A DNA stretch of 64,000 bases from Pseudomonadota bacterium (GCA_043825735.1 JBDRRP010000107.1:1-64000), one strand, 5' to 3'; counted from the stretch's first letter, positions 41,026-64,000 are shown. Notes: generated by a model from the letters alone, not told the origin. Made by a program: numbers and translations.

Positions 41026-41118
41026 GTATTTCCCTAAAGGGCACAAAAGGCCAAAAAATCGACAACACCACGGATGCGCCATTTTTTTTCCATCACTTCG
41101 CCGGGCGCTGATCCGCCC

Positions 41119-43761: not shown

Positions 43762-43850
43762 CGGTAGCGCATCCTTTGTCGATGTCGGTGACGCCAAAGC
43801 GGGCGGCGGCGACACCCGCCGCCAGATGCGGCGGGTGTCGGCTCTTCGGG

Positions 43851-45817: not shown

Positions 45818-45866
45818 TTTCCCTCCTTGCCTCCTGTGGTTTGTGCGGTGTGCGTTCTTTTGCCGA

Positions 45867-46295
45867 TTATCGATGCGGGCGCGGCGCGTCATGCGCTTGC
45901 GCGCTCCGTATTTTTTCTTCCTGTAGTGCCTTGTTTTTAAATGCATCCTGCAGCTTGTAGACAATGTCGTCGATGTCCATCGGCTTCATCAGATAGTCAA
46001 AGGCCCCCATCGCCATCCCGGAGATGGCGGCTTCGACACTGGCGTGCCCGGTGAGCAGGATGACTTCCACCAGCGGTTTTTCCTTCTTGATCTGCTTCAA
46101 CACCTGGATGCCGTCCTGGCCGGGCATTTTGACATCCAGCACCACGACGTCGATGTCGGTGGTGGCCAGGATGCCCAGGGCTGCGGCGCCGCTGCCGGCA
46201 GTCAAGACGGCCATCTGCCGGCGGGTCAGCCGTTTGGCCAGCGTTTCCAGAAAGTCCGCCTCGTCATCGACGAGCAACACGTTAATGGGCTTCAT
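45867..46295 (-). CDS. Stand-alone response regulator receiver
   Basis: LVDDE, LDVKMPG, LTGH, LMKP. Confidence 0.92.
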   Translation of the reverse strand: MKPINVLLVDDEADFLETLAKRLTRRQMAVLTAGSGAAALGILATTDIDVVVLDVKMPGQDGIQVLKQIKKEKPLVEVILLTGHASVEAAISGMAMGAFDYLMKPMDIDDIVYKLQDAFKNKALQEEKIRSAQAHDAPRPHR

Positions 46296-46731
46296 GGTCT
46301 TTTTCCCCTGTACGGACGACCGACATGATGGCATCGATCAGATCGGCGACCTCGCATGGTTTGGTGAGATAAGCGCTGGCCCCGAAACGGAGGCCCTCCT
46401 GCGCGGCGATCTCACAGCCGTGGCCGGTGAGCATAATCACCGGCAGCTCCGGCACCATCTTTTTGAATATTTTCAGGATTTCGATGCCGTCCATGTCGGT
46501 GAGTTTCAGATCCAGCACGGCGATGTCGAATTCTTTTTTGCGGAGCACTCGAATCGCTTTCTCTCCGGACATGGCCGTTTCCACCGAAAAACCCCGCCGT
46601 GCCAGCCGCTTGGCCAGTACTTCGGTGAACGGCACTTCGTCGTCCACCAGCAGGCAGCGGACGGGCGCGCGTGCGGGGCAGGCACCGCCGGTGGCCTCCC
46701 GTGATCGTCCGGATGCGTCACGTCCCTTCAT
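46282..46731 (-). CDS. Stand-alone response regulator receiver
   Basis: LVDDE, LDLKL, LTGHG, LTKP. Confidence 0.9.
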   Translation of the reverse strand: MKGRDASGRSREATGGACPARAPVRCLLVDDEVPFTEVLAKRLARRGFSVETAMSGEKAIRVLRKKEFDIAVLDLKLTDMDGIEILKIFKKMVPELPVIMLTGHGCEIAAQEGLRFGASAYLTKPCEVADLIDAIMSVVRTGEKDHEAH

Positions 46732-46764
46732 GATATCGCCTCACATACGTCCCTTGTCGGTTCA

Positions 46765-47196
46765 CTATGCCCGCCGCGAGGTGATCTCTCTAATGCGGGC
46801 TTCGATGATTTTCTCCTCGTGCCGTCGCTTCTTGGCGGCAGCGTCTTTGACCTTTTCCATGAGGACGTCCATGTCGCAGGGCTTCATCAGGTAGTCATGG
46901 GCGCCCTGCTTCATGCCATCGATCGCCGATTCAACGGTGCCGTGGCCTGTGAGCATGATGACTTCCACAAGCGGGTGCTTTTGCTTTATGTCAACCAGGA
47001 CCTCGATGCCGTCCTTGCCGGGCATTTTGACGTCCAGGATGACGACTTCGATTTCGGCATGCGCGGCCAGCATTTCCATGGCCTGAGCGCCGTCATAGGA
47101 TTGAAACACTTCCGTATTTCTTTTCCTCAGGCGGCGGGTCATGGCGTCGACGAACGCCACTTCGTCATCGACCAGCAGGATATTGGCTTCAGTCAT
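46765..47196 (-). CDS. Stand-alone response regulator receiver
   Basis: LVDDE, LDVKMPG, LTGHG, LMKP. Confidence 0.93.
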   Translation of the reverse strand: MTEANILLVDDEVAFVDAMTRRLRKRNTEVFQSYDGAQAMEMLAAHAEIEVVILDVKMPGKDGIEVLVDIKQKHPLVEVIMLTGHGTVESAIDGMKQGAHDYLMKPCDMDVLMEKVKDAAAKKRRHEEKIIEARIREITSRRA

Positions 47197-48932
47197 TGGT
47201 TGCTCCTTTCATCAAGTGGTGAACCCGTTTTAGGTGTTTCTTGGTTTTCAGAATCTTCCTCTATCGGCAGACGGATGGTGAACGTGGTGCCGCTGCCCAC
47301 GCGGCTGGCCACTTCAATCCGTCCGTTCATTCGACTGATGATGCCATAACAGATGGACAATCCCAGCCCCGTCCCCTTCCCGACGGACTTTGTGGTGAAA
47401 AACGGATCGAAGATGCGCGGCAGATTGGCGGCGGGGATTCCGGGACCGTTGTCTTTGACCTCAATCAGTACTTCGTCGCCAGCCACCTGCGTGTTGAGCT
47501 CGAGGGTGCCGCCGTCTTTTTCCATCGCCTGCAGGGAATTGTTGATAAGATTGAGCAGGACCTGCTGCATCTCCGATGGAGACCCGGCGATGGCCGGCAC
47601 GCCGGGGCCCAGGTGCGTGACAACCTGGATATTGCCGTATCGGGCGCGCTGCTCGGTCAGGGCGACCATTTCATTGATGAGGGTGTTGGGATGGATCTGC
47701 GTAATGCGCGAGTCCGTCTTACGGGCAAAGCTGAGCAATTTGTGGGTGATTTCCTTGCAGCGTTTTCCCTGGGTGTTGATTTGCTTTAGGGCGCGGTGAA
47801 ACTCTTCCAGGTTGCTGCTCTCAGCAAATTCATTCTCCTCCAGCAGATCTTCGATCCAGCCGGCTTCTTCGACCATAATGGCCACTGGATTGTTGATTTC
47901 GTGCGCGATACCGGCAGCCAGCTCTCCGATGGATGCGAGTTTTCCCGTCTCGATGACCTGGAGATTCATCAGTTCTTTCTCCTGATCGGCACGCTGGATG
48001 CGCTGGACCATTTGACGAGACAGGAACACTGCCATGAGGACGATGCCCAGACCGCCGAGACCGAAGATCAACAGGGCGATGATCTGGGCCTGGGTGAGCG
48101 CGGAAAAGGCGTCAGAGCGCTTCTGGAGATACACCAGCCGCCAGTCGCCGCCTTTGAGGGATGCGACTGCGGTCAGGTATACGGTGCCATTGCTATTCTT
48201 GACTTCGCGCACGACAACCGGGCTTCGGCGGTTGCGGGATTCCGTACCGTTGGGGGGTCTGAAATCACCGGTGACCATTACTGTCTGCCGGGGTTGGGTC
48301 TGGAAAACACCGTCCCGGTTGAGGATGTATGCGAAGCCGGTCTCGCCGATGTGGATGTTTTCCACCAGATCGTTGAAAGAGACAAAGTCGATGGTCGCCC
48401 GAAGGATCCATGGTCGGCCGCCGATGGTTTTACGCACGGTTACGATGAAATGGGGGGAATCCCTCAATCCCAGAAACACGTCGCTGATATAGTATTGGCT
48501 ATGGATGGCCTGCTTGAACCAATCGGCCATGCTGTAGTCAGCGCCGCGAAGACCAAAAGGCCCGGCGTAGGCGATTTGGCGGCCATCGGCGTCGACCACA
48601 CCCAGGTCGACGAATACCAGGCTGAACATCTTTTGCAGGTGCTGCAACTGCTGCGCGAGAAAGACTTCGTTGGTGAGTTCGGCATAAGTAAACGTCTCCG
48701 CGAGGAATCGGACCTTTCGCTGTTTCTCGCTGAGAAAGCTGTCGATAGCTTGCCGGTGTTTGGCCACCAGTTCCTCAAGGTGGGCATATACCTTGGTCTG
48801 ATAGATGCCCTGAAACTGATCGAAAATGATCCCGCCGACGAGGAACAGCGGCGTCAGGGATACCAGAATGACGATGGTCACCATTTTTCGGATCAGCGAG
48901 CGGTAGTAGTTCCGGTTGGCAGTGTCGTCCAT
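47193..48932 (-). CDS. Cache-domain sensor histidine kinase, paralog of 20646-22307
   Basis: DLGVVD..AYAGP..SDVFLG..PHF..ILRATID; AGIAHEINNPV; G-boxes. Confidence 0.93.
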   Translation of the reverse strand: MDDTANRNYYRSLIRKMVTIVILVSLTPLFLVGGIIFDQFQGIYQTKVYAHLEELVAKHRQAIDSFLSEKQRKVRFLAETFTYAELTNEVFLAQQLQHLQKMFSLVFVDLGVVDADGRQIAYAGPFGLRGADYSMADWFKQAIHSQYYISDVFLGLRDSPHFIVTVRKTIGGRPWILRATIDFVSFNDLVENIHIGETGFAYILNRDGVFQTQPRQTVMVTGDFRPPNGTESRNRRSPVVVREVKNSNGTVYLTAVASLKGGDWRLVYLQKRSDAFSALTQAQIIALLIFGLGGLGIVLMAVFLSRQMVQRIQRADQEKELMNLQVIETGKLASIGELAAGIAHEINNPVAIMVEEAGWIEDLLEENEFAESSNLEEFHRALKQINTQGKRCKEITHKLLSFARKTDSRITQIHPNTLINEMVALTEQRARYGNIQVVTHLGPGVPAIAGSPSEMQQVLLNLINNSLQAMEKDGGTLELNTQVAGDEVLIEVKDNGPGIPAANLPRIFDPFFTTKSVGKGTGLGLSICYGIISRMNGRIEVASRVGSGTTFTIRLPIEEDSENQETPKTGSPLDERSNQ

Positions 48933-50593: not shown

Positions 50594-50636
50594 CAAAATA
50601 AAGAAGGCGGGCGCTGTCCAGCCCGCCTTCTTTATT
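50594..50636 (-). terminator. Intrinsic terminator of the Ehr operon
   Basis: 16-bp inverted repeat AATAAAGAAGGCGGGC / GCCCGCCTTCTTTATT overlapping the stop codon, U-rich tail on the minus strand. Confidence 0.75.
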
Positions 50637-52053
50637 GGCTGATGATGATGGTGGGGTAAAGTCCTTCCAGCGCGCCGTCGGTATACGGCTGGATGGTATT
50701 AAATGAAATCTTCTGATTTCTTTGGGCATGCCCCTTGTTTTTGAGCCCGTTGAACAGGGCACCGTTGGCTTCGAGGATGTGATGAATGCGATCACGGAAG
50801 CCGGTGATGAATGTGGCGCCGCTGCCTTCGAAAACCATTCCGCCTTTTGTGGTGCCGCTGGTGATTTTGGCAAAGTCTTTCTGGCTGATACTGTTGTCGG
50901 CCAGTTCTTTTTTGCTGGTAATCAGCCCCCAGACCAACTGGCCGGCGGGAATGGTCAGGGGTTCGGTGGCGTCGATGATGGTATGGGGCATGATGATGCT
51001 TTCCTGGCCGATGGTCAGGCGCGCATCCGGGCGTCCCCTTAAAAACGAGTTGAAGCCCACAAATACCGTCTTGCCCAGATCGGCCTCGATGATTTTGGCG
51101 CCGTGGGCCGTCACGTTATTGCCTTCCAGGTGGGAGTTGATGATGTAGCAGTTCTCCTGGGCGTTGGCGCCGACCCCCAGGTGTGCATTCTGCAGGAATG
51201 CGCGCTGGGCCACCAGGACGTTTTCGCTGATGGTGGTCTTGGGCTTGATGACGGCGAATCGGTCCAGGGAGGCATTCTTGGGGACTTTGACGGGTTGATC
51301 GATGTTCACCACTTCAAAGACCCGTTGAAAGGCTTCCTGCCGGTCTTCCACGAAGTCGATGAACAGCCCCTGGGGCGGAGCCCCGGGCGCAAAATGGATA
51401 TAGCGGTTCAGGCGGTCCAGGGGATGCTTGTAGAGAAAATTGAAGTTTCCGGGGCTGCGGATCCAGATCGTGCCGGGCGCGATGCACTGGTGAGCGATCT
51501 CTCCGGCCTGGATATAGGCAAATGCGCCGATGACGCTGTCGTGGGCCGTGGTCAGATCAACCGTGGAAAAGGGCCCCAGAAAACATCCTTCCATCGGTGA
51601 TCCGTGGATATTGGCATAGTGGGTGGATACCGTATCCTTGATGAAGAAAGTCTCCAGGGTTTCCGGATCGTGTGAAAAGCAGTGCACCAGGGTTTTGATC
51701 AGATAGCTGTCTTTGATGTCAATCTCTTCATCCCTGGACAACACGATGTTGAACTCTTTGAAAGGGTAGGCATCGTTTTTCTTCTTGAGCTCGTCTCCCC
51801 GGATGTCGCTCTTGTAAAGGATGGATCGGGTGACCTTGCATTTTCCCAGAAAATAGCTGCCGGCAAGGCTCGATTCCCTGAATTGGAAATCGAGCGTGTG
51901 GTTGGGGGTGATTCCGTAAAACGCGTAGAATTTCTTGAACTGCTGGCTGGGGACCAGATCCTCTACCCAGGGGCGCACGTCATACTGGAGTTCTCTCAGA
52001 TTGATATTGACGCGCTGGCTGATCCGTTCGAAGAGATTTCTCAATGCTTCCAT
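50632..52053 (-). CDS. Hexapeptide-repeat protein with two gamma-carbonic-anhydrase-like domains
   Basis: Domain 1: IRGDE, TLVH, STHYANIHG. Domain 2: NAQEN, VTAHGA, VFVGFNS. Confidence 0.75.
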   Translation of the reverse strand: MEALRNLFERISQRVNINLRELQYDVRPWVEDLVPSQQFKKFYAFYGITPNHTLDFQFRESSLAGSYFLGKCKVTRSILYKSDIRGDELKKKNDAYPFKEFNIVLSRDEEIDIKDSYLIKTLVHCFSHDPETLETFFIKDTVSTHYANIHGSPMEGCFLGPFSTVDLTTAHDSVIGAFAYIQAGEIAHQCIAPGTIWIRSPGNFNFLYKHPLDRLNRYIHFAPGAPPQGLFIDFVEDRQEAFQRVFEVVNIDQPVKVPKNASLDRFAVIKPKTTISENVLVAQRAFLQNAHLGVGANAQENCYIINSHLEGNNVTAHGAKIIEADLGKTVFVGFNSFLRGRPDARLTIGQESIIMPHTIIDATEPLTIPAGQLVWGLITSKKELADNSISQKDFAKITSGTTKGGMVFEGSGATFITGFRDRIHHILEANGALFNGLKNKGHAQRNQKISFNTIQPYTDGALEGLYPTIIISQ

Positions 52054-52062
52054 GAGGCATCC

Positions 52063-52635
52063 TCACTCGTTGTCAATTTCGCATTCCTTCATCGTGTGGA
52101 AAATGGCACCGAAGACATCCGACAGCCGCAAAATGCCGACAATTTCCTTATCTCGGGCAACCAGCAGGGAGAGCTGGTGCTGGCCCATCACCATCTGATG
52201 GAGGGCCATTTCCAGAGACGTTTCCGGTGACACATATTCCTCCTCCATGGGCGCCTGCATGATCGTCTCCACTTTGATTTTAGAGGCTTTCTTGCAAAGC
52301 GCTTTGAGGGTGACGCCCTTTCGCGGCCGGTCCTTGATCAGCGAGGTGATGAATTTGTCGCTGAACTCGAAGTCACTGAGTTCGCTGAGCTTGTAGAGGA
52401 CATCGTCATCGGGTTCGAGTTCGATGGCCTTGAGAACATCCATGTGGCTCAGTTTGCCGACGACCCGGTTGTCCTTGTCGAGAACCAGTACGGCCCGGTG
52501 CCGGTGCTTGCTGCGGTCGTATTCCTCCTGGGCCTTTTCCAGGGCGAGCACGGCCTCGAACAGGGTGGCACCTTTCCTGACAGTGGCATATTCGGACAGC
52601 GGGACCATCAACTCTTCGACTGTGAATGTATCCAT
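52063..52635 (-). CDS. CBS domain protein
   Basis: LMVPLSEYATV, HRAVLVLD..VVGKLS, VGILRLSDVF; GGAGG RBS. Confidence 0.9.
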   Translation of the reverse strand: MDTFTVEELMVPLSEYATVRKGATLFEAVLALEKAQEEYDRSKHRHRAVLVLDKDNRVVGKLSHMDVLKAIELEPDDDVLYKLSELSDFEFSDKFITSLIKDRPRKGVTLKALCKKASKIKVETIMQAPMEEEYVSPETSLEMALHQMVMGQHQLSLLVARDKEIVGILRLSDVFGAIFHTMKECEIDNE

Positions 52636-52743
52636 AGGTCACCTCCAGAACGCGGTAGAGCCCGACAATAGCATAAAATTAGTAACAAAGTGAAGCCTTT
52701 AGTGGGCCGCTGCCGCGTGTCGGTCCGAAGCCGGAGATCAAAC

Positions 52744-52867
52744 TTGGTGAAACCGGAAAAAGTGATTTTGAACCGCAGAGCGCGCAGAGAAACGCAGAGA
52801 ACATATTTAACCTCTGCGCTCTCTGCGTCCTCTGTGGTGATTTCTGATTTTTTTACGAGTTTGTCAA
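52744..52867. repeat. Family A palindromic repeat
   Basis: GAAAAAGTGATTTTGAACCGCAGAG...CTCTGTGGTGATTTCTGATTTTTTACGAG. Confidence 0.85.
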
Positions 52868-52902
52868 ACTTGTGCCGGCCGATGGCCCCTTATGGATGGA
52901 CA

Positions 52903-53646
52903 CTACTTGAAAAACGTCAATAGGGCGTGCAGATTGGTCAGCGGGTGCGGAGGGCACCCGGGAATGAACAGGTCCACCGGTAAAAGGGTGTCCAGGCCTT
53001 CGGTGATTTCCGGGCCGCCGCGAAACGGTCCGCCGGTCAGGGTGCAGCTGCCCACGGCAATGACGGCCTTGGGCGCTGGAACGGCCTCGTAGGTCGTGAG
53101 CAGCGCTGTTTTCATGTTGCGGGAAATCGGACCGGTGACGACGATGGCATCGGAGTGGCGCGGTGAGGCCACGAAATTGATACCGAACCGGGCCAGGTCG
53201 AAAAAGGGGGTCGCCAGCACGTTGAGATCGGCTTCACAGGCATTGCAGCCGGCCGCGGACACCTGGCGCAGTTGCAGGGACCTGCCGAAGAGCTTCTTGA
53301 AGTGCCGGCGGGAGTGGGCGGCCAGATCGGCCAGCGATCCGTCCACTGTCAGGTGCTCTTTTTCGGCAACGGCGATTTCAAAATCCTGGGTAAAGGTGAC
53401 AAATTCGCCGCCGGAAACCTGTTCACAGGTCCCGCAGAAGATGCACCGGCCCATGTCCAGCGTGCGGGCTTCGTTGTCAATGGCGTCCTGGGGACAGGCG
53501 GCGGCGCAGCGCGCCACCAGTTCTGCGGGAGCCTCCCGGTTGATCTGCGGGCGGCCCCGGTAGCGTTTCCACAGTTCGATCTTTTTCTTCGGATACCCGG
53601 TCGTCCGGTAGCCCTGCTCGAATCTGTTTCTAAGCGTATTGAGCAT
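52903..53646 (-). CDS. ehrS: Ehr small subunit (NuoB/HyfI-like) fused to a ferredoxin-like N-terminus
   Basis: GCNACE, SPRHSD, AVGSC, IPGCPP; N-terminal CAAACP and CIFCGTC. Confidence 0.85.
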   Translation of the reverse strand: MLNTLRNRFEQGYRTTGYPKKKIELWKRYRGRPQINREAPAELVARCAAACPQDAIDNEARTLDMGRCIFCGTCEQVSGGEFVTFTQDFEIAVAEKEHLTVDGSLADLAAHSRRHFKKLFGRSLQLRQVSAAGCNACEADLNVLATPFFDLARFGINFVASPRHSDAIVVTGPISRNMKTALLTTYEAVPAPKAVIAVGSCTLTGGPFRGGPEITEGLDTLLPVDLFIPGCPPHPLTNLHALLTFFK

Positions 53647-53809
53647 CTTTGTCTCTCTCCATCAAGTTCTGAGTAGAGTACTTGTCAGAATATTGTTCCG
53701 TTTCATCCCCGAGATCCTATCGGGGTCGGGATCGAAATCGGGATCGATATCGATGCTCACCATAAGATGTTGTGCAAACGGAACGAATTTTTATCAATGG
53801 CTATAATCT

Positions 53810-53885
53810 TCACAAAGGACACGAAGTATTTCTAACGCACTTCTTCTGGTTGTTCCTTCGTGCACTTCGTGTTCTTCGTGGTTCA
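53810..53885. repeat. Palindromic repeat, CACGAAG variant
   Basis: CACAAAGGACACGAAG...CTTCGTG x3 then GTTC. Confidence 0.7.
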
Positions 53886-53894
53886 CATCCAGTG

Positions 53895-55406
53895 CTACAG
53901 GTCAAATCCGCAATACGACAGGTTGAAGCTTTTGTTGTTGAGCGGAAAATCGCTGATTCCCGTATCACGCAAAGACATGGAAAGGCCGTTCCAGTTGTGG
54001 AACGAGGGGTCCTTTATTTTGTAATGCAGCAGACGACCGGTGTCATCGGTAAGCACGCAGTGCGACACTTCGCCGCGCCAGGCCTCGTTGACGGTCACGA
54101 CGAAAGACGAACCGGCAAGGTTTATCTCCGCCGCAGGCGGCACGCAGGCGGTTTCCACCGGCGCATCCAGCATCGACAGGATCAGCCCCATGGATTGAAG
54201 GCTCTCATCGGCCCGCATCCTGGCCCGGGCATACACATCCCCGGTTGATTTGGCATTTTCAGGAATCTTAAGGCGGCCATAGTGCTCGGTCGGAAAGCAG
54301 CGGCGGACGTCGTAGGCCAGGCCGCAAGCCCGGCCGGCCGGGCCCACCAGACCGAGCTTTTCCGCGTCACCGGTGCTTACGGCCCCGCACCCCTCGAAAC
54401 GGGAGCGAACGCTGGACGTTGAAAAAAGCAGATCGATGGTGTGGGCAACCTGGGGGTGGATTTCGAGGATTCGCGATTTCAGCGTCGTGCGGATCTCATC
54501 GTCCATAGCAAGCCGGACGCCGCCGGGGCGGATCAATCCCTTGCTGAAACGGTTGCCGCAGAGCAGCAGAGACATATTGAGGAAATCGCCGCGCATGCGG
54601 CCGCAGTAGTTGGCCGGGGGCAGGAAGGCCACATCGCCGCTCAGGGCGCCCAGATCTCCCACATGGTTTTGAAGCCGCTCGAGTTCCAGTGCGATGGTCC
54701 TGATAATGCGGGCCCCTTCATCGGGGGCCATCCCGGACAGGGCCTCGATCGCCTGGGAATGGCAAAGGCTGTGGCCCACGGTGGTGTCTCCGGCAATGCT
54801 TTCGGCAAGGATCGGCAGACGCTTTGCGGCGGCTGTCAGCAGCATCGGTTCGATGCCCCGATGCTGATATCCCAGCTGGATCTCCAGATTGAGGACGCGC
54901 TCACCGATGCAGTTGAAGCGAAAGTGGCCCGGTTCGATGACGCCCGCATGCACCGGGCCCACGGCCACCTCGTGGATCTCATCTCCGGCAACGCTGTAAT
55001 AGTCGTAGCGGCCGGGGATATCTTCCGAGTAGTCGTTGCCGAACACGTCCGGCAGATCCCTGTAATTGGGGTGGTAGCGGACCATTTTCAACCAGGGGTG
55101 ACCCTCCGGGCGGATCCCGTACTGTTCGGCGATTTCGCGCTCGAACATGTGAAACGGCTCGCACTGGGCGCTGAGCGCCGGGTAGGCCGCCGGCGCATCG
55201 GATCCGGCCACCAGCAGTTTGTCGGTGCGCAGCACCGCCAGCAGTTTGAGGTCTTGCCCATCCGGATAGGCGAAAAACTGGACCACTTTGCCCCCGGCGT
55301 CGACGATTTTCAGCGCCTCCTGGCGAAACGTTTCAAAGGGCAGGTGCGGGAGGGTGTCCCGGGCAACGGCCGCGCCATTTTCGATCTCGATAAAACCCGT
55401 TTCCAT
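53895..55406 (-). CDS. ehrL: Ehr large subunit (NuoC/D-like, HyfG/HycE homolog lacking NiFe cysteine motifs)
   Basis: FEREIAE, GPVHAGVIEPGHFRF, HRGIE, ELER, GDVYAR, DPSF; ESIAGDT and FNLSYCGFDL replace the two CxxC motifs. Confidence 0.88.
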   Translation of the reverse strand: METGFIEIENGAAVARDTLPHLPFETFRQEALKIVDAGGKVVQFFAYPDGQDLKLLAVLRTDKLLVAGSDAPAAYPALSAQCEPFHMFEREIAEQYGIRPEGHPWLKMVRYHPNYRDLPDVFGNDYSEDIPGRYDYYSVAGDEIHEVAVGPVHAGVIEPGHFRFNCIGERVLNLEIQLGYQHRGIEPMLLTAAAKRLPILAESIAGDTTVGHSLCHSQAIEALSGMAPDEGARIIRTIALELERLQNHVGDLGALSGDVAFLPPANYCGRMRGDFLNMSLLLCGNRFSKGLIRPGGVRLAMDDEIRTTLKSRILEIHPQVAHTIDLLFSTSSVRSRFEGCGAVSTGDAEKLGLVGPAGRACGLAYDVRRCFPTEHYGRLKIPENAKSTGDVYARARMRADESLQSMGLILSMLDAPVETACVPPAAEINLAGSSFVVTVNEAWRGEVSHCVLTDDTGRLLHYKIKDPSFHNWNGLSMSLRDTGISDFPLNNKSFNLSYCGFDL

Positions 55407-56827
55407 TAAAAACCTCCGCCGCTGGAAGTCACCGCTTGGATAATCGCCTGGTACAGCGGATCCGGAAGCCAGAAACACAGTATCAGGGAGGTCAGCAGCA
55501 ACGCATACTGGGGCCAGATCATGTTGGCCTTCTCAGGGATGCGGACCACCGTGTCACTCTGGCCGTAGGAGATCTTGAGCACCTGATTGGCAAATCCGGC
55601 GAAAATGACGCACAGGCTCACGATGAACAGGCCCACCCCCCAGTAGTGGCCGCCCCGGAAGGCGCCGATGATGATCAACAGCTCGCCGATAAAAATGCCG
55701 AAGGGCGGAAACCCGGAAATCCCGGCGAAGCCGGCAAAGAACGCCACAAAGGTGCGCGGCATCTTTGTAACCAGATCGCCGGTGCTGGCGATCATCCGGC
55801 TGCCGTATCCCAGGAGAATATTGCCTGACGTGAGAAACAGGGACGACTTGATCAGGCTGTGGTGAATCAGGCACACGATGGCCCCAAAGGCGCCGATGCC
55901 GCCGATGCCGGTGCCAAAGGCGATAATTCCCATGTTTTCGATGCTCGAATAGGCCAGCATGCGTTTATATTCGGTCTGTTTCAGGATGAAGGTGGCGGCG
56001 GCCATGATCGAGAGCAGGCCGAAGACCATCAAAATGGTGCCGGAGAAATCGCCCAGACCGGCAGCGACCATGATTTTGTTGGTTTTAAAGATGCCCAGGT
56101 AGGCACAGTTGAGCAGCACGCCCGAGAGCAGCGCAGAAGCAGGGCTGGGGGCTTCGCTATGGGCATCGGGCAGCCAGGTGTGCATGGGGGCGAGTCCCAT
56201 TTTGGTCCCATAGCCCACCAGGATGAACACGAAGCCGGCCTTCAGCCACATCGGGTCGAGCTTTCCGGCAACGGCGGTGAGCGCGGAAAAGGAAACCGGC
56301 GCGTCCACTCGGCCCACGTCCATGGCCACCGTTATGAGCACCGAGCCCAAAAGGGCCAGTGCAATGCCCACCGAGCAGATCAGCACGTACTTCCAGGTGG
56401 CCTCCAATGAGGCGGCGGAGCGATGGGTGTAGATCAGCGGGGCGCTGGCCAGTGTCGTGGCCTCGATGGCGATCCACATCACCATGATGTGGTCGGAGAG
56501 GGTCACCATGGTCATGGTGGACAAAAACAGCAGCATCGAACCGGTGAAAATGTTCTCGCTCCGGAGATCGGAGGCCTTGAGGTATCCTGTCGTGTAGATC
56601 GAGATCAGAAAAAAGAGCAGAGAGATCACCAGCAGCGACAGCAGGCCTTCGGGGGTGACCGCAAAGAAATCCGGAAACAGCGGCTGCGGCCGGCGCGCCC
56701 AGAGCAGGATGGAAAACAGCAAGTGCACTGCACCGGTCAGCACCAGGAGTGATCGGCCAAGGCGCGGTGGCATGAAAAAAGCCAGCAGACCGGCGATAAA
56801 TGGCGCCACAAAGACGATTTCAACCAT
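55406..56827 (-). CDS. ehrD: Ehr antiporter-like membrane subunit (HyfF-like)
   Basis: EATTL, EATWKY, GTKMGLAPMHTWLPDAHSEAP, KRMLAYSSIEN. Confidence 0.88.
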   Translation of the reverse strand: MVEIVFVAPFIAGLLAFFMPPRLGRSLLVLTGAVHLLFSILLWARRPQPLFPDFFAVTPEGLLSLLVISLLFFLISIYTTGYLKASDLRSENIFTGSMLLFLSTMTMVTLSDHIMVMWIAIEATTLASAPLIYTHRSAASLEATWKYVLICSVGIALALLGSVLITVAMDVGRVDAPVSFSALTAVAGKLDPMWLKAGFVFILVGYGTKMGLAPMHTWLPDAHSEAPSPASALLSGVLLNCAYLGIFKTNKIMVAAGLGDFSGTILMVFGLLSIMAAATFILKQTEYKRMLAYSSIENMGIIAFGTGIGGIGAFGAIVCLIHHSLIKSSLFLTSGNILLGYGSRMIASTGDLVTKMPRTFVAFFAGFAGISGFPPFGIFIGELLIIIGAFRGGHYWGVGLFIVSLCVIFAGFANQVLKISYGQSDTVVRIPEKANMIWPQYALLLTSLILCFWLPDPLYQAIIQAVTSSGGGF

Positions 56828-56837
56828 AAAGATCCAC

Positions 56838-57479
56838 CTATTCCTTTAAAGTTCTGAGCAGTGCCGTGTCCACGTCGTCAAAGGTCTGCTTGATATTCTG
56901 AAGGATGACGGCCATGATCATCACGCCGGCCAGCACGTCCAATAAAATACCGAATTCCACAATATGCAGCGCCCGCACCGAAAACGTCGTTCCCACCAGG
57001 TAGATCCCGTTTTCCATCATCATGTATCCCAGGACCATGGCGATGGCGTTTCGCCGCGCGGTAAGCAGAAACATGCCGGCCACCAGGACCGAGATGGCCG
57101 TCGGCAGCAGCAGGGCGCTGGCGCCACTGGCCGGCAGGTTGAACTTGTGGCTGGCAAAAGTCGCCCCCACGATCAGTCCGAGTCCGGCGATCAGTGAGGC
57201 ATGGTAGCCGATGATCGGCTCCACCTCCCGGCGGATGGCCACCTTTTTGATGGCCAGGTGGATGCACAAGGGGATCACGATGCCCCGGATGGTCAGGGTG
57301 ACCAAGGTAAACGCCAGTCCGCCGCCCGTCATATCGTGTCCGATAAACAGCGGCACGATGGAGACCACGATCCCCTGAAAGGCAAGGACCTTGATCAGCC
57401 CCGGCAGACGACTGGAGCCCAGGGAGAATAGGATCGACAGCAGCACCAGAGATAATAAGGTATCGACCGGATGGCTCAT
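56838..57479 (-). CDS. ehrC: Ehr membrane subunit (HyfE-like)
   Basis: AFQG, RREVEP, MMENGI, VEFGILLD; coupled to the upstream gene. Confidence 0.85.
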   Translation of the reverse strand: MSHPVDTLLSLVLLSILFSLGSSRLPGLIKVLAFQGIVVSIVPLFIGHDMTGGGLAFTLVTLTIRGIVIPLCIHLAIKKVAIRREVEPIIGYHASLIAGLGLIVGATFASHKFNLPASGASALLLPTAISVLVAGMFLLTARRNAIAMVLGYMMMENGIYLVGTTFSVRALHIVEFGILLDVLAGVMIMAVILQNIKQTFDDVDTALLRTLKE

Positions 57480-58396
57480 GGGAGATACTCCAGGGTGATG
57501 ATGGTTGCAAAAAAGGCCAGGGCAAAAGAGGTCAGGATAAACTTGGGCACCGCGTCCATGCGGTAGCGGGCCATGACCGATTCGGTCACCCCGACGGCGA
57601 TGTAGACCGTCACCAGGGCGGCCAGATACATGCCCATGTTCAGGGCGGGGTGGCCCAGATCGAAGGGGACGATCAAGGTGGCGACCATTGACGCATAGAA
57701 AAACAGTTTGCAAAAGGAGCCCAGTTCGATGAGTGCGAAGTCCGGCCCGCTGTGGTCCAGCACCATGACCTCATGGATCATGGTCAGCTCCAGGTGCGTG
57801 GCCGGATCGTCCACGGGAACCCGCGAGTTCTCGGTGAGCAGGACGATGAAAAAGGCCAGTACGACAAACAGCAGCGGTGAGCCGGCCGCCTGCCACAGTG
57901 ACTTGGGCTGGTGAGCGGTAAAGTAAGCCGCCAGTTGCAGTTGCTCGGTCAGCAGATAGAACAGGATCAGCACCATAAACAGCGTGGCTTCGCAAATAAT
58001 GGGGAAATACGCTTCCCGTGCGGCGCCCATGCCTTCGAAGGGTGAGGCCGTGTCCATGGCCGCGGCAATGGTGAAAAACCGTCCCAGCCCCAGCAGGTAA
58101 AGGACGAAAATCACGTCCCCGGTGAACGAGAACAGGGGCCGGTACCCGGCGATGGGCAGAAACATCAGCGCCGTCAGCGCGGCGCCCAGGGAGACCATGG
58201 GGCCCAGCTTGAACAGGAAGGTTGTGCTGGTGCTGTAGACGGACCCTTTTTTCAGCAGCTTGATCAGCGTGAAGTAGTTGATCAGCAGGGGGGGGCCTTT
58301 TTTGCCTCCGAAGAAGGCCTTGACCTTGAGAATCATCGCCGAGAGCAGCGGTGCCAGTAGAATGGCAAGCAGCCAGAGGTAAAAGGATCTAATCAT
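57476..58396 (-). CDS. ehrB: Ehr NuoH/HyfC-like membrane subunit
   Basis: KKGPPL, SPFEGMGAARE, ENSRVPVDDPATHLELTMIHE. Confidence 0.9.
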   Translation of the reverse strand: MIRSFYLWLLAILLAPLLSAMILKVKAFFGGKKGPPLLINYFTLIKLLKKGSVYSTSTTFLFKLGPMVSLGAALTALMFLPIAGYRPLFSFTGDVIFVLYLLGLGRFFTIAAAMDTASPFEGMGAAREAYFPIICEATLFMVLILFYLLTEQLQLAAYFTAHQPKSLWQAAGSPLLFVVLAFFIVLLTENSRVPVDDPATHLELTMIHEVMVLDHSGPDFALIELGSFCKLFFYASMVATLIVPFDLGHPALNMGMYLAALVTVYIAVGVTESVMARYRMDAVPKFILTSFALAFFATIITLEYLP

Positions 58397-58445
58397 AAAA
58401 CCGCCTCATTGGATGGTGCGTTCAACGACATGTCGCACCAAGGGT

Positions 58446-60401
58446 TTATATGAAAAAGAGCAACGCCACGATGGCCGCCAGAATGTACCCGATATACAGG
58501 TGGATATCCCCGTGCTGGATCCAGCGCAGCCGGTCGAAGAGCCACAGGATGGGGCGGACCACCACGGTGCCCATATGCATTTCGGCAATGTCGCCGATCT
58601 GGCTGTGGTAATGCGTCGGTCGCGGAAACCGGCCCCGGACTGCCGGGTGCACCACGTGGCGCGGGGCGACCGGCTTGAAAAAATCCAAAATCGATGCCGC
58701 GTAGGAAGAACCGGTATATTGCATCTTGACGGTGGGTTGGGTAAAGCCGCAGCCCCAGGTGCCGGCGCGTGAGATGGGTTTGTCCTTGTAGGCCATCATT
58801 CGCAGCGCCACGATCAGGCCCATGACGATCACAAACTGGGCGGCGGCCACACTGATATTGGTGGTGATCGGCATAAACGGCTCAATGGCGATGCGGCCGT
58901 AGCCCAATCCGAGCGCGCCGACCGCCTTCAGTGCCATGAAGATAAAAAACCGGGGAAACACTCCGACCACGCAGCAGGCTGCGGCCAGAATCACCAGCGG
59001 CGGCAGCATCATGCCCCCCCCGCTCTCGGCTGCGGCGGCTGCCGGTGTGCGGGGTTCGCCCTGAAACACCACCCCCATCACCTTTGAAAAGAGGGCCAGG
59101 GCCAGGCCGCCGATGATCGCCAGACTGATAATGGCCAGCACACTCATGGCAAAGGCGTTCTGGTGCATCGCCACGCCCCGGAAACTGCCCAGATAAATGA
59201 AAAATTCACTGACGAACCCGTTGAAGGGCGGCAGGCCGGAAATCGCCAGGGACCCGATGAGGAAGGTGATGCCAACGGTGCGCATGCGCTTTATCAGGCC
59301 GCCGAGGGCATCGATGGATCGGGTGCCGGTTTTCTGGATGACCACCCCTGCGCCCATGAACAGCAGCGATTTGAAGAGGGCGTGGTTGAGCACATGAAGC
59401 AGCGCCCCGGTGAAGCCGAGCACGGCCATGACCGGCCGGCCGGCCGTAACGCCCACCATGCCGATCCCGAGGCCGATGAGAATGATGCCGATGTTTTCGA
59501 CGCTGCTGTAAGCCAAAAGCCGTTTCAGATCGTGCTGGCCCAGCGCATAGACGACTCCTAATATCCCGGTCGCCATGCCGGTGATCAGGACGATTTGCCC
59601 GGGCAGCGGCGTGTGCAGCTCCAGCAGGCTGTAAATGCGGATAATCCCGTAGATGCCGGTTTTGATCATGACCCCGCTCATGACCGCCGAGATGTGACTC
59701 GGGGCCGCCGGGTGGGCATAGGGCAGCCAGATGTGGAACGGGAAAATGCCGGCTTTTGAGCCGAAGCCGATGAAGCACAGCACAAAGACGGCGGTCTTCA
59801 GCGGGACGCTCAGGGAGGTTGCCAGGAGCTCGAAACTGCCGGTTTGGCCGTAGATCAGGCCGAACCCGGCCAGGATGAACATGGCCCCGACCTGGGAAAA
59901 GACAAAATAGAGAAACCCGGCCCGGCGGTTTTCCGCGGACTGGTGGTCATAGATGACCAGAAAGAAGGAAGACAGCGACATGCTCTCCCACGACAGCATG
60001 AACGCGAGCATGTTATCGGCGGTGACCACCAGGGCCATGGAGACGATGAGCAGGCTGAAAAACAGCGTATTCGCTGCCGTGCGCAGAGCCTTTTCCGGCT
60101 TGTCCATGTAGTGGAAACTGTAAAGCGCGGCCAGCGCGCAGATGGCATAAATGGCCACCAGGAAAAAGGCGGACAGGGTGTCCATACGGAAAGCCAGCGT
60201 CGCCGCGTTCATGACTTTGACGCTGGCGATATAGCTTCCCGGGTTCAGCAGTTTGGCCATGGCATCGACAGCGCCGATCAGGCATCCTGCAGCCAGCGCC
60301 AGCACGCTGATGGCCTTCATGAGGGTGAACTGCCGCCAGGTGAGCATGGCGGATGCGCCCCCGGCTGCAATGATCAGGTTCGCGGTAAAGAAAAGATCCA
60401 T
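58446..60401 (-). CDS. ehrA: Ehr antiporter-like membrane subunit (HyfB-like)
   Basis: WESMS, KAGIFPFHIWLPYAHPAAP, KRLLAYSSVEN, HALFK, WGCG..MQYT. Confidence 0.9.
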   Translation of the reverse strand: MDLFFTANLIIAAGGASAMLTWRQFTLMKAISVLALAAGCLIGAVDAMAKLLNPGSYIASVKVMNAATLAFRMDTLSAFFLVAIYAICALAALYSFHYMDKPEKALRTAANTLFFSLLIVSMALVVTADNMLAFMLSWESMSLSSFFLVIYDHQSAENRRAGFLYFVFSQVGAMFILAGFGLIYGQTGSFELLATSLSVPLKTAVFVLCFIGFGSKAGIFPFHIWLPYAHPAAPSHISAVMSGVMIKTGIYGIIRIYSLLELHTPLPGQIVLITGMATGILGVVYALGQHDLKRLLAYSSVENIGIILIGLGIGMVGVTAGRPVMAVLGFTGALLHVLNHALFKSLLFMGAGVVIQKTGTRSIDALGGLIKRMRTVGITFLIGSLAISGLPPFNGFVSEFFIYLGSFRGVAMHQNAFAMSVLAIISLAIIGGLALALFSKVMGVVFQGEPRTPAAAAAESGGGMMLPPLVILAAACCVVGVFPRFFIFMALKAVGALGLGYGRIAIEPFMPITTNISVAAAQFVIVMGLIVALRMMAYKDKPISRAGTWGCGFTQPTVKMQYTGSSYAASILDFFKPVAPRHVVHPAVRGRFPRPTHYHSQIGDIAEMHMGTVVVRPILWLFDRLRWIQHGDIHLYIGYILAAIVALLFFI

Positions 60402-60533
60402 TCATTCCCCTTTGATTATTGACCTTCACGGTACAAGGGTAAAAAATCAATGTACTGAACCGACTCAGTCCATTGCCGGCGCCTTTCCATGGGGCTGTTC
60501 TGACCATCGCCCCATATCATGAAAAGCTTTCGA

Positions 60534-62015
60534 TTACAGTGTTATGGGCATGCCCATCAGCGGCCACAGGACGTACACGGCAAAGCCGACCACGATCATC
60601 AGAATGATGCTGGCCGGAATACCGTAGAGAAAAAACTCTCCGGTCGTGAACTGCTTGGAGTCGTAGGCGATGGCGTTGGGCGCCGCGCCCACCAGCAGCA
60701 AAAACGGCATGCCGGCCGTCACCAGGGAAGCAAACAGAATGACTTCGCCAGACACGCTGAGGTAAGGGGCGATGACCAGCGCCACCGGCAGGGATATGGC
60801 GATGGCTGCCACGTTCATGATGAAATTGGTCATGATCATGACGAAGAAGGCGATGCTCATGACAAAGACGAACCAATGGGATTCCTTGAAAATGGTCAGC
60901 CAGTTGATGGCGAGCCACTCGGCGGCGCCGGTTTCCCAGAGGCAGAAGCCGATGCTCATGGCACCGGCAAAGAGCAGGATGATGTTCCAGGGAATCGCTT
61001 CAAGATCGTCGATGTCGAGGATGCCGGTGATAAAGAAAAGGATGGTGCTCAAAAGGATGAGCGCCGTCTTGTGGGGCGGGTTGAAGCCGGGGATGGCGGC
61101 TTGCAGGAGTGCCGAGAGGGCCAGGCCCAGGATGCACAGCCCCACGATGCTGGCGGCGATGACTTCCTTGCGGGTGATGCCGCCCAAGGCGGCGTTAAGC
61201 GTCTTGGCGCGCTCCTTCAGGCCGGGGATGCTTTTTTTCTCCGGCTTGAGCACCACCATGAAGTACCCCCACAGCAGGAAGGTCATGAGCCAGCCGATGG
61301 GGAACATGTAATAGGAGAGCTCGAAAAAGCCGATATCCTTTTGCATGATGTCCTTGTAAAATCCGAGGGCCACGGCGCCGCGGGCCGCGCCCAGGAGGGT
61401 GACGATGGAGCCGGCGCCGGCCACGTAGGCCATGCCGATGAACAGCCCCTTGCCGAATTTGGTGGGCTTGTCGCCTTCACCGTAGAGCGCGTAGATCGCC
61501 ACCAGCAGCGGGTAGATAGTGGCCGCCACGGCCGTGTGGGCCATGATGTGGGTCAGGGCGGCCGTCACCACAAAGCAGCCCAGGTAGATCATGCTCGTTT
61601 TTTCCCCCACGATGGCGAGCATCTTGTAGGCCAGGCGTTTGGTGAGGCCTGTTTTGGTGAAGACCAGGCCGATGACGATGGAGCCGAAGATGAAGAGCAC
61701 CGACGGGTCCATGTAGTCCTTGAAGGCCTTGCTGGCCGGCCGGATGAGAAACAGCACCTGCATGACGCCGATGGCCAGGCTGGTCACGCCGATGGGGATC
61801 ACTTCAAACACCCACCAGGTGCCGGCCATGAGAAAAACGGCCAGCGCCCCTTTGCCTTCCGGACTGAGCGCGAAGCTCTTGCCCGTGGGGTCGATGGCAT
61901 CGGGCCAGGCCGGTGAATAGTACGTGATAAAAAACAGGGCGACGCCGGTCAGCAGTGCGGCCATTTTGCCCCATTCGATCTTTTTTTCAGCGGCAGAGAA
62001 CGTATTTGTTGTCAT
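60534..62015 (-). CDS. SLC13/DASS family anion:sodium symporter
   Basis: WWVFEVIPIGVTSL, IPWNIILLF, TNFIMNVA, AAPNAIAY. Confidence 0.9.
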   Translation of the reverse strand: MTTNTFSAAEKKIEWGKMAALLTGVALFFITYYSPAWPDAIDPTGKSFALSPEGKGALAVFLMAGTWWVFEVIPIGVTSLAIGVMQVLFLIRPASKAFKDYMDPSVLFIFGSIVIGLVFTKTGLTKRLAYKMLAIVGEKTSMIYLGCFVVTAALTHIMAHTAVAATIYPLLVAIYALYGEGDKPTKFGKGLFIGMAYVAGAGSIVTLLGAARGAVALGFYKDIMQKDIGFFELSYYMFPIGWLMTFLLWGYFMVVLKPEKKSIPGLKERAKTLNAALGGITRKEVIAASIVGLCILGLALSALLQAAIPGFNPPHKTALILLSTILFFITGILDIDDLEAIPWNIILLFAGAMSIGFCLWETGAAEWLAINWLTIFKESHWFVFVMSIAFFVMIMTNFIMNVAAIAISLPVALVIAPYLSVSGEVILFASLVTAGMPFLLLVGAAPNAIAYDSKQFTTGEFFLYGIPASIILMIVVGFAVYVLWPLMGMPITL

Positions 62016-62080
62016 TTCGAGCTAACCTCCGTGTAAAATATGTGATCGCAGCCGGTTTCCCCCCCTGGAGTCCGGCTGGG

Positions 62081-62656
62081 TCATCCGGCGCTGCCCCCGT
62101 GTTCCTTCTGGCATTCCTTCATCGCGTGAAAAACCGCTGCAAAAACATCCGTGAGTCGGAGGATGCCGGTAATCTTGTCACCCCGGGCGACCAGCAGAGA
62201 CTGGTGATGGCCCATGACCAGTTGATGAACGGCCTGGTCCAGGGACGCGCCTTCCTCCACGTACTCGCCTTCTGACGGGGTGTACATGATGTTTCGGGCT
62301 CTGGTTTGAAGGGCTTTGCGGCACAAGTCCATCAGCGGTGTCGACCACATGCCATAGCTCTTGATCAAGGATACCGTGAATTCTTTGGAAAAGCCGAAGT
62401 TGTGCATCCCTTTCTGACCGGCCATTTCAGCGTATTTGGGTTCGAGCGCCTTGAGCACGTCCAGTTGGCTGATCTTGCCGACCACGCGGCCGTCTGCATT
62501 CAGTACCAGGATGGCCCGGTGCCGATAACGGGTGTGATCGAATTCCTCCTGGGCCTTTTCCAGTGTGGAGACGGCTTCGAAAAGTGTGGCGTCTTCATGC
62601 ACCGTTGCGTATTCCGACAACGGCACCATCAGGTCTTTAACGATAAATGTCTGCAC
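62081..62656 (-). CDS. CBS domain protein, paralog of 52063-52635
   Basis: LMVPLSEYATV, HRAILVL, GILRLTDVF; GTG start with AAGGAGG RBS. Confidence 0.9.
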   Translation of the reverse strand: MQTFIVKDLMVPLSEYATVHEDATLFEAVSTLEKAQEEFDHTRYRHRAILVLNADGRVVGKISQLDVLKALEPKYAEMAGQKGMHNFGFSKEFTVSLIKSYGMWSTPLMDLCRKALQTRARNIMYTPSEGEYVEEGASLDQAVHQLVMGHHQSLLVARGDKITGILRLTDVFAAVFHAMKECQKEHGGSAG

Positions 62657-62967: not shown

Positions 62968-63747
62968 TCAGCTCAAAACGCGATTTTCGAGCCAGTCGAA
63001 AACGGCGCGGCCCTGGGCGGCGGGATCTGATTTACCGGTCATCGCGGCGACGGCCTCCTCCCGCTGCGTCGCGTCGTTAAGGCGCACGGTCGAGTCAACC
63101 AGCCTGAGGGCATTGTCGATGCGGCTGAAGGCGACCAGCGGGCCGAAGGCGACCGGGGCGTCGCCGATGCGCCCGGTCTGGCCGGTGATGTCGTGGTGGG
63201 GCACCTGGAGCGCTTTGGGCGGCGCGGTGAACCCCAGTATTTCGCTGAACAGCGCCAAGGCGTCGGTGACGCCTTCGGTGTAGCCGTTTTCCAATGAGCG
63301 TGCCCCTATGGCGGCAATCTCATGGATGTCGGCCGGTTTCCAGTCGAGGTTCAGATCGGCCAGGCAGGTTTCCTGCACCCGCCGGACCGTGTCGGCCTGA
63401 CGGCTCGTCACGACATCGGTGTCCACCAGGATTTTTCGGATATTGCGCAGGTTGACCATCTCCTTGACCGTGGGGCTTTTGCGCATTTCTACATCTTCCA
63501 CCGAGGTGTGGTACAGGGGCAGGTCGTTGTCGAGCACCAGCACCTCATGACGGGTGGCGTCCCCGTCGGGCACGTAAAGGTCATTGTCTCGCCGGCGCAG
63601 GCGCTGGTAGCCGGCCATCTCAAGAAGGGCGATCATGTTTTCGCGGTCCACATGGCGTTCGCTGCCCGGCGGGCGCAGGGAGGTGATGACGGCGGCCGCC
63701 ATTTTGTCGATAGCCATTTTTTTGCGCAGATTGTCGATGAAGCTCAT
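62968..63747 (-). CDS. Hypothetical protein
   Basis: 259-aa ORF with host-like codon use and an AAGGA RBS; no recognised motif. Confidence 0.75.
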   Translation of the reverse strand: MSFIDNLRKKMAIDKMAAAVITSLRPPGSERHVDRENMIALLEMAGYQRLRRRDNDLYVPDGDATRHEVLVLDNDLPLYHTSVEDVEMRKSPTVKEMVNLRNIRKILVDTDVVTSRQADTVRRVQETCLADLNLDWKPADIHEIAAIGARSLENGYTEGVTDALALFSEILGFTAPPKALQVPHHDITGQTGRIGDAPVAFGPLVAFSRIDNALRLVDSTVRLNDATQREEAVAAMTGKSDPAAQGRAVFDWLENRVLS

Positions 63748-64000
63748 TGGGGGTATCCTTGATGACAATGGGGCAGGGAAATTTTGATTTCAGGCGCCTG
63801 TTCCATGATGCGCCGCATACCGCGGCGGGTCTGGATATACATCGCCCATTGTGTATGGCATGAAAGCGTCTCCTTGTGCCTATCATAACGGTTGTGGCGG
63901 GCGAGGGCAACCATGGGCACCAAGTCTATGGCAATCTTGACGCCGCCGGGGTTTTTGGCTATAGCTCCGTGACAATGCACTCCCGGCATGGTGGCGCCTG

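Follow-up and report, generated by a model that had tools for sequence, protein, structure and literature searches.

Carriers of the SulP/SLC26 family are found fused or linked to beta-type carbonic anhydrases (CAs), and anion-exchanger 'transport metabolons' are known. Clusters of a DASS carrier, CBS proteins and a kinase have been proposed as sulfate uptake systems (26 sulfate reducers, Desulfobacteraceae; Wohlbrand et al., 2025, PMC11887813). The DASS carriers of such clusters, which may or may not belong to the clade described below, are abundant and constitutive, and the DASS genes of D. autotrophicum respond to sulfate level (PMC11887813, PMC5840216). When sulfate is plentiful, the pH gradient drives its uptake in an electroneutral manner (PMC5840216). 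Proposals concerning the six-subunit Ehr complexes tie them to formate dehydrogenase (PMC6349859, PMC7894505). Here we describe ten genes at positions 50594-62656 of a 64,000-nucleotide stretch from a Pseudomonadota bacterium (GCA_043825735.1 JBDRRP010000107.1:1-64000; the whole stretch is called the window), in which an SLC13/DASS anion carrier, two CBS-pair proteins and an Ehr complex are encoded together with a 473-aa tandem left-handed beta-helix (LbH) protein resembling gamma-CAs. Our tentative explanation is that the cluster is a CA-coupled anion uptake module, the anion being likely sulfate, with the Ehr complex as an optional pump.

The recurrence of CA genes beside one clade of carriers speaks for this explanation. 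We surveyed 200 Desulfobacterales genomes (the order sample) and 300 genomes of the phylum, the latter additionally searched for LCIB and beta-CA genes. The carrier clade was present in 35 of the 185 phylum genomes searched for it, and a CA gene was counted as linked when it lay ≤8 kb from the SLC13 gene. By this rule 17 of the 35 genomes, in nine families, have a linked CA, against a rough expectation of 0.2 computed from CA counts and genome sizes. These comprise five tandem LbH genes, five LCIB genes, one LCIB-like gene, five beta-CA genes and one iota-type gene. Conversely, five of the seven full-score LCIB genes directly follow a carrier gene of this clade, and their genomes have no LbH gene. 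The iota-type case is a CaMKII_AD/SnoaL protein ending in HHSS, encoded 16 nt behind the carrier, which by these features we take to be an iota-CA. This gene (L165:4351-4812) is followed by antiporter-like (Mrp/Nuo) subunit genes at 7814-11963.

In a forward test on 36 SLC13 loci, fetched from 35 genomes of the order in which LbH is absent, another CA stood directly downstream of the carrier in six and none in 30. The six were three beta-CAs (one family), two LCIB-like proteins and one Cam-type gamma-CA with an in-frame stop. This Cam-type gene (L196:9917-10538) has TGA at the Arg of RGDE, reflecting a pseudogene or a sequencing error. The LCIB-like proteins keep Cys, His and Cys in 8/8 aligned; LCIB-like proteins of 383-403 aa, which form a family scoring under the Pfam cut-off, are encoded before ehrA or behind a DASS carrier (L119:3566-4753, L140:14456-15637, L178:3547-4698, L215 and L218). 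Unrelated CA folds directly follow the carrier, with gaps of 16-250 nt, and the presence of five CA kinds beside one DASS clade points to CO2 or bicarbonate as part of the mechanism.

The neighbourhood of the LbH gene was counted in three sets. Among the close loci, which are the best 80 of 216 GTDB loci with this gene (all ≥66% identity), SLC13 was present in 42, Ehr in 47 and SulP in nine; among 23 phylum LbH loci, SLC13 was present in 15 and Ehr in none; and of the LbH genes in 117 order genomes, 52 were near SLC13, 34 near Ehr and 71 near either. The widest partner of the LbH gene is the SLC13/DASS carrier, not Ehr. SulP near the tandem LbH gene was seen in 9/80, 2/23 and 3/11 loci of the sets surveyed. 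Fragmented assemblies depress the linkage counts in the order genomes, and some SLC13 contigs of both samples are short; the genomes counted are kin and not independent, and Fisher P values on co-occurrence were rejected as a test. We consider it probable that carrier and CA are functionally coupled. An earlier note on this DNA, made from the sequence alone, had centred on Ehr and missed this constant link of CA with SLC13.

The features of the cluster, in the order of transcription, are as follows.

62081-62656, minus strand: CBS-pair protein 1 of 191 aa, starting with GTG, which likely regulates the carrier (Pfam CBS, 4e-14)
60534-62015, minus strand: SLC13/DASS anion carrier, 493 aa (Pfam Na_sulph_symp/CitMHS; VcINDY alignment)
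58446-60401, minus strand: EhrA, HyfB/NuoL-like antiporter subunit, 651 aa (Pfam, NCBIfam)
57476-58396, minus strand: EhrB, NuoH/HyfC-like, 306 aa (Pfam, NCBIfam)
56838-57479, minus strand: EhrC, HyfE-like, 213 aa, its start overlapping the ehrB stop (NCBIfam)
55406-56827, minus strand: EhrD, HyfF-like antiporter subunit, 473 aa (Pfam, NCBIfam)
53895-55406, minus strand: EhrL, NuoC+NuoD-like, 503 aa, without NiFe CxxC (Pfam)
53647-53894, no strand: ehrL-ehrS gap with two dispersed palindromic repeat elements (BLASTN, own genome)
52903-53646, minus strand: EhrS, ferredoxin-like domain fused to a NuoB-like domain, 247 aa (Pfam, NCBIfam)
52636-52902, no strand: ehrS-CBS2 gap holding one long palindromic repeat of a dispersed kind, with AT-rich sequence ahead of CBS2 (BLASTN, own genome)
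52063-52635, minus strand: CBS-pair protein 2 of 190 aa, its gene separated by 9 nt from the LbH gene downstream (Pfam CBS, 9e-15)
50632-52053, minus strand: LbH protein of 473 aa with two gamma-CA-like domains in tandem, a member of the 3C8V family; H124 and H150 (domain 1) and H317 (domain 2) are predicted to make up a split Zn site
50594-50636, minus strand: 16-bp perfect hairpin (the hairpin itself 50597-50636) with T-rich tails, likely a bidirectional terminator

All ten open reading frames are intact and on the minus strand, in the order that the earlier note had given, and its account of a unit closed by a strong terminator and of larger gaps holding repeats instead of genes was borne out by the perfect hairpin with its T-rich tail and by BLASTN, which gave 232 matches in the own genome for the gap at 53647-53894 and 213 for that at 52636-52902. 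Hidden genes in these gaps were thereby ruled out. The SLC13-ehrA gap gave a single match, to itself, and the stop and start codons of ehrB-ehrC and ehrD-ehrL overlap.

Aligned to VcINDY, the carrier has A159-H160-T161 for the first SNT motif, MNV for the second and A-A-R212-G for SPPN; it lacks the two SNT motifs and SPPN/TPPN loops of VcINDY-type Na+ coupling, keeping the Thr and Asn of the second site. His160 and Arg212, which presumably replace Asn151 and Pro202 of Na+-coupled VcINDY, are kept in 52/52 and 31/31 further homologues. In DASS exchangers cationic side chains stand in for Na+, as with Arg159 and His392 of LaINDY (PMC7553777); in the window's carrier the invariant His160 and Arg212 are close to the first site but apparently not at the LaINDY positions, a register inferred from residue numbers only. 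These two residues hint at exchange or at H+ coupling. The carrier clade is 53-89% conserved, and dsrA was present in the own genome and in 4/4 tested genomes with CA-linked carriers. The window also contains the combination of DASS, CBS and Cache kinase/receivers in a sulfate reducer that marks the published putative sulfate uptake clusters, and we lean towards sulfate as the cargo. The own genome encodes a second SLC13 protein (52%) on the 8-kb contig C99.

The only clear solved relative of the 473-aa protein is 3C8V (E 1.6e-151, ~52% identity), which is YP_390128.1 of Desulfovibrio G20, labelled 'putative acetyltransferase' and assigned to Pfam Hexapep_loop. The predicted model (predicted local distance difference test, pLDDT, 75) matches it with a template modelling (TM) score of 0.87 and Z 45. 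In the ESM Atlas only the protein's own family exceeded 0.9, and the literature search for 3C8V, which yielded only two peptide-design papers, found no published function. Residues 43-214 and 243-452 of the model each align to Cam, CcmM and the complex I gamma-CAs (Z 8.5-9.3, root-mean-square deviation 2.5-3.7), and both domains are a left-handed beta-helix with a C-terminal helix, as in gamma-CA. In profile alignments with plant CA2 and the own genome's canonical gamma-CA, the RGD, His124, His145 and His150 of domain 1 align with the gamma-CA RGD and three metal histidines; in domain 2, N297-A-Q299-E300 aligns with NIQD and H317, its only metal His, with the middle histidine, the first and third histidines and the RGD having been lost. 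We take the Cam numbers of the corresponding Arg and Asp residues to be Arg59, Asp61 and Asp76.

Conservation follows this division. D87, E88, H124 and H150 of domain 1 and N297, Q299, E300, H317 and N430 of domain 2 are present in 223/223 homologues, R85 in 222/223 and the redundant His145 of domain 1 in 204/223. Such near-complete invariance of the site (222-223 of 223 homologues) makes it likely that the protein is enzymatic, with a single split site. All three site histidines are kept in 21/24 near-full-length 50%-cluster representatives, and four relatives of 349-376 aa (P0217, P0220, P0226 and P0229; 25-28% identity) have the full site set in 4/4 and His145 in none. These four lack the N-terminal part yet keep the split site; two metagenome scans for loci of such distant ~350-aa relatives found none. 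In Cam one monomer supplies His81 and His122 and the adjacent monomer His117, the catalytic residues being Asn73, Gln75, Asn202 and Glu62 (PMC4519908). Neither domain of the 473-aa protein conserves the three metal histidines of a homotrimer-forming gamma-CA, and a complete inter-helix site is found, at the level of sequence, across the two. It is therefore likely that domain 1 keeps one face of the site and domain 2 the other, giving one composite predicted Zn site per chain. We think it quite likely that the protein has CA activity, and the earlier description of it as gamma-CA-like is supported to the extent that it is probably a real gamma-type CA. When the profiles of the two domains were compared, they did not match significantly (probability 2.5%), so that a duplication within the gene is not demonstrated by sequence. 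A second tandem LbH copy, 62% identical, lies at G000:C32:22648-24066 among kinase/receiver genes near a contig end (L082, L106).

The Ehr complex is complete in its six subunits, with two antiporter-like, one NuoH-like, one HyfE-like and the large and small hydrogenase-like proteins recognized by Pfam and NCBIfam. EhrL lacks the CxxC pair at both NiFe positions, its C-terminus holding one Cys, C499, which is kept in 56/56 homologues; the nine cysteines of EhrS are all kept in 60/60. With no metal ligands, identity as a NiFe hydrogenase was ruled out; the earlier note had described Ehr complexes in general as lacking a NiFe site. No electron-input gene is present in the cluster, so that the electron donor of Ehr is not encoded there. 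A helix-turn-helix (HTH) plus PTS-EIIA gene accompanies 18/30 distant phylum Ehr operons (L122-L159) and not the window's Ehr clade.

This Ehr clade, defined by EhrL ≥65% identity, occurs in 39/200 order genomes, and all 39 have the LbH gene; the two genes are within 20 kb, our definition of linkage, in 31 and on different contigs in eight, and 23 of the 31 linked pairs are on opposite strands. In the whole order sample LbH is present in 117 genomes, EhrL in 61 and the SLC13 clade in 128; LbH is found in 78/161 genomes without this Ehr clade and in 13 of the 22 that have only a distant EhrL, three of these pairs being within 6 kb. At the 47 Ehr-bearing close loci, Ehr is convergent with LbH in 41, co-directional downstream in five and upstream, as in the window, in one; given these 41, Ehr and LbH are not one operon in most relatives, and a universal ten-gene operon was ruled out by the gene orders among the close loci. 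In the phylum sample LbH was found in 23 genomes and EhrL-like genes in 53 (some matches at 33-37% identity may be other group-4 relatives), both in three and never on one contig; 50 of the 53 EhrL-bearing genomes have no LbH gene.

Distant Ehr lineages nevertheless adjoin LbH at three loci (L109, L110 and L111), representing at least two further lineages: in a quick IQ-TREE phylogeny of 57 EhrL, two distant linked copies belong to a deep group of their own that has full support and lies among unlinked operons; the third groups with unlinked relatives. An LCIB-like gene stands directly before ehrA at three loci of one family and two Ehr lineages. On a FastTree phylogeny of LbH (70 rows, taken from loci that have Ehr or extend 7 kb to either side; most of the even-numbered Ehr loci of the close set were left out), the Ehr link is scattered over the tree and needs 14 changes, at least nine of them forced. 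Given that LbH accompanies this Ehr clade in 39/39 genomes but often occurs without Ehr, this Ehr clade needs or travels with LbH, and not the reverse. Ehr is thus an optional add-on to the carrier-CA module, although a functional tie between them still appears somewhat favoured. The earlier proposal of an energized Ehr-CA module for CO2/bicarbonate or pH therefore holds in part: the clade always comes with LbH, further Ehr lineages stand beside LbH or an LCIB-like gene, and the survey that it called for confirmed linkage of LbH to SLC13 (15/23 phylum loci); but LbH is usually unlinked to Ehr (34/117 in the order, 0/23 in the phylum), and when linked is mostly on the opposite strand, so that part of what the note itself had named as a refutation did come about. 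At L114:4443-7258, TrkA/TrkH potassium uptake genes lie between SLC13 and LbH-ehr, with same-size open reading frames at that position in L115.

In the CA-coupled uptake module that we favour, the DASS carrier would import the sulfate that respiration needs, either exchanging it for bicarbonate or bringing it in along with protons; the tandem protein would supply HCO3- and H+ from CO2 at its split Zn site, near the carrier; the CBS proteins are candidates for gating the carrier by adenylate level; and Ehr, where present, would export surplus H+ or Na+, thereby biasing the reaction. Such a coupling of sulfate uptake to CO2-derived bicarbonate or protons is suggested because the carrier sits with a likely CA and Ehr. 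Exchange of SO4(2-) for 2 HCO3-, together with CA, formally equals the electroneutral 2 H+/SO4(2-) symport that whole-cell measurements have long shown.

Several observations weigh against this explanation. The link of carrier and CA is not obligatory, as no CA is nearby in 18/35 phylum and 30/36 order SLC13 loci, and in 46/117 order genomes LbH is near neither SLC13 nor Ehr. Of the 30 phylum Ehr loci fetched (from 53), three have the LCIB-like gene just upstream, two a beta-CA within ≤12 kb and 25 no CA. Sulfate transport by this DASS clade is an annotation and sulfate a candidate cargo only. The LbH acyltransferases LpxA and GlmU tie with the gamma-CAs in structural comparison (Z 8.5-9.3), so that fold alone does not decide between CA and acyltransferase; and the own genome also has two beta-CAs, a canonical gamma-CA and the second tandem LbH copy.

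These observations also bear on the alternatives. The carrier might itself move bicarbonate or carbonate, Na+- or H+-coupled and by import or export, in inorganic-carbon or pH homeostasis without a direct role for sulfate, with Ehr as its ion pump. The five CA kinds recurring beside it, substrate motifs that depart from known DASS proteins and the Mrp-like and Trk genes of some related loci would all fit, and annotation often mistakes SulP bicarbonate carriers for sulfate carriers (PMC5840216). We nevertheless regard this as unlikely, because DASS proteins carry divalent anions, the clade is conserved at 53-89% with dsrA in 5/5 hosts tested, and the published cluster carriers, which may be of this clade, have the abundance and sulfate response described above. 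Ehr and the tandem CA might instead, in line with the earlier note, form a single membrane complex for vectorial CO2 hydration of the DAB or NDH-1/Cup kind that raises cytoplasmic HCO3-, the carrier being a consumer of that gradient or a bystander. The contrast between 39/39 and 78/161 genomes, the distant lineages that also adjoin LbH, the LCIB-like gene with Cys/His/Cys before ehrA and the face free of site residues in each LbH domain, which could bind a partner, speak for such a pump, and EhrA and EhrD are NuoL/HyfF-like just as DabB is NuoL-like (PMC13684180). Yet 78/117 order and 20/23 phylum genomes use LbH without this Ehr clade, where a freely soluble CA would short-circuit a pump; 41/47 linked close loci are convergent; 50/53 phylum EhrL genomes lack LbH; and no membrane anchor was found in the LbH model. 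On this evidence the pump is unlikely. A more elaborate energized bicarbonate circuit, serving Desulfobacterales in the uptake of their electron acceptor, in which the split-site CA docks on Ehr through its free beta-helix faces, Ehr ion export pulls CO2 into HCO3- and DASS spends the gradient as a sulfate/bicarbonate exchanger, seems to us quite unlikely. If true, it would be a CO2-concentrating machine for respiration and not for carbon fixation, the first function for an Ehr complex and, arisen independently in bacteria, a counterpart to the gamma-CA module that mitochondrial complex I carries.

Mere co-regulation or hitch-hiking would require that ion-homeostasis genes gather in a kinase-rich island, with carrier, CA and Ehr independent of one another and Ehr working with formate dehydrogenase, as in the proposals cited in the opening paragraph, or another donor. 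Gene order and strand are labile, the Ehr link has been gained or lost many times, and most of the phylum-wide Ehr loci, 18/30 of which have the HTH-PTS-EIIA gene, lack a CA. The placing of unrelated CA folds at 16-250 nt directly behind the carrier, an adjacency that outlasts several rearrangements and the 39/39 co-occurrence make this improbable. Lastly, the 473-aa protein might use its gamma-CA scaffold for something other than CA activity, serving as a metal-dependent hydrolase, an acyltransferase or an anion sensor. Other activities occur among some gamma-CA homologues; no CA family model of Pfam or NCBIfam scored above its cut-off for this protein, LpxD and GlmU outrank gamma-CAs for domain 2 in sequence searches, the invariant H357, H442 and Q444 have no assignable Cam counterpart, and the PDB label of 3C8V is putative acetyltransferase. 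Conservation of the complete Cam-type site set down to 25% identity, and the replacement of the LbH protein beside the carrier by four other CA kinds, make this alternative very unlikely.

The transcript structure of the cluster may be more complex than its ten co-directional genes imply. The whole gap at 52636-52902 folds at -92 kcal/mol (without a shuffle control), and a strong hairpin there could split the transcript. CBS2-LbH is a unit of its own in most relatives, and on the minus strand at 52665-52694 TTCACT-18 nt-TATTGT, with TG before the second hexamer, was noticed by eye (8/12, below the scanner cut-off); this motif could be an internal promoter for CBS2-LbH. A sigma-70 promoter scan was at chance level (six found, 6.9 expected), and sigma-54 sites scoring ≥8/10 were found upstream of none of the six window genes tested and, in related upstream regions, in 1/33, 1/71 and 0/37, near the shuffle level. 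The hairpin at 50597-50636 was not among the calls of the terminator scanner.

CBS1 and CBS2 are 55% identical, and most related SLC13 loci are flanked by a CBS gene. A CBS gene lies directly upstream of LbH in 77/80 close loci, compared with 2/23 phylum-wide loci. The own genome has a third CBS paralogue on contig C139, and the window has two further CBS genes (30949-33871) and a distant SulP. The closest named loci belong to the Desulfobacterales. A dCache kinase with nearby receivers is encoded at 47193-48932, 1.7 kb past the terminator, and genes for a dCache kinase, receivers, a TauE permease, a PPDK-like protein and a sigma-54 activator occupy 34857-48932 and 25080-26768, which gives the window the look of a genomic island devoted to signalling and the transport of anions. 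A 266-aa protein without a Pfam match (62968-63768) recurs near CBS-SLC13 in relatives L008, L017, L066 and L117.

The DASS-CBS-kinase cluster is already published (PMC11887813), and its CA link was not found in print. The main text of that paper does not contain 'Ehr', 'carbonic anhydrase' or 'transferase', although its figures 5C, S21 and S22 and its supplements may already show these genes; PMC5109826 and PMC4215793 have no mention of Ehr or carbonic, and no publication linking Ehr or this DASS clade to CA was found in a search that was thin on subscription journals. How sulfate reducers import sulfate becomes open to direct test: their carriers are assigned by annotation, and whole-cell data cannot tell 2 H+/sulfate symport from CA-aided exchange of sulfate for 2 HCO3-. 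A part for CO2/bicarbonate in this mechanism, in organisms credited with much of the carbon oxidation in the seabed, would matter for their energy balance and for models of sulfur isotopes. If the 473-aa protein is a CA, the 3C8V family would represent gamma-CAs in which two specialized domains of one chain share a single site. An Ehr clade never found in the order sample without this CA-like gene also offers a concrete phenotype to seek and a testable role for Ehr.

Compared with Cam, the CcmM N-domain and the CA/CAL heterotrimer of mitochondrial complex I, the 473-aa protein shares the beta-helix with a C-terminal helix, and with canonical gamma-CAs the His/His plus His site between two beta-helices, RxDE, NxQ[DE] and the C-terminal Asn; it differs in having two domains per chain with half a site each, neither with all three histidines conserved. 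It belongs to the same family as 3C8V, labelled an acetyltransferase, and is read here as a putative split-site gamma-CA. The Ehr complex resembles that of Geobacter sulfurreducens (GSU0739-45) in its six subunits A-B-C-D-L-S, the missing NiFe cysteines and the unassigned function of the class. It differs from other Ehr complexes in that its clade is always accompanied, in the order sample, by the tandem CA-like gene and is without the HTH-PTS-EIIA gene that often precedes Ehr operons elsewhere.

With the DAB and NDH-1/Cup pumps the locus shares a CA-type gene beside complex-I-like antiporter subunits. The CAs of those pumps are buried, membrane-coupled and obligate partners (PMC13684180), whereas the LbH CA mostly occurs without Ehr and usually on the other strand. 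LbH-Ehr linkage (34/117 within 20 kb, 0/23 in the phylum, 41/47 convergent) is not that of an obligate, co-transcribed CA, the dependence running the other way (39/39); the fold of the 473-aa protein is LbH and not that of DabA (beta-type) or CupA/B, and DabA had no match in the own genome. The Desulfobacteraceae cluster of PMC11887813 is similar in its DASS carrier, CBS proteins and dCache kinase/receivers and in a dsrA-bearing Desulfobacterales host; that paper treats DASS as Na+-driven. Finally, the locus keeps an anion carrier beside a CA as the SulP/SLC26-CA systems do, but here the carrier is a DASS protein with altered Na1-site residues, and the slot beside it is filled by five kinds of CA.

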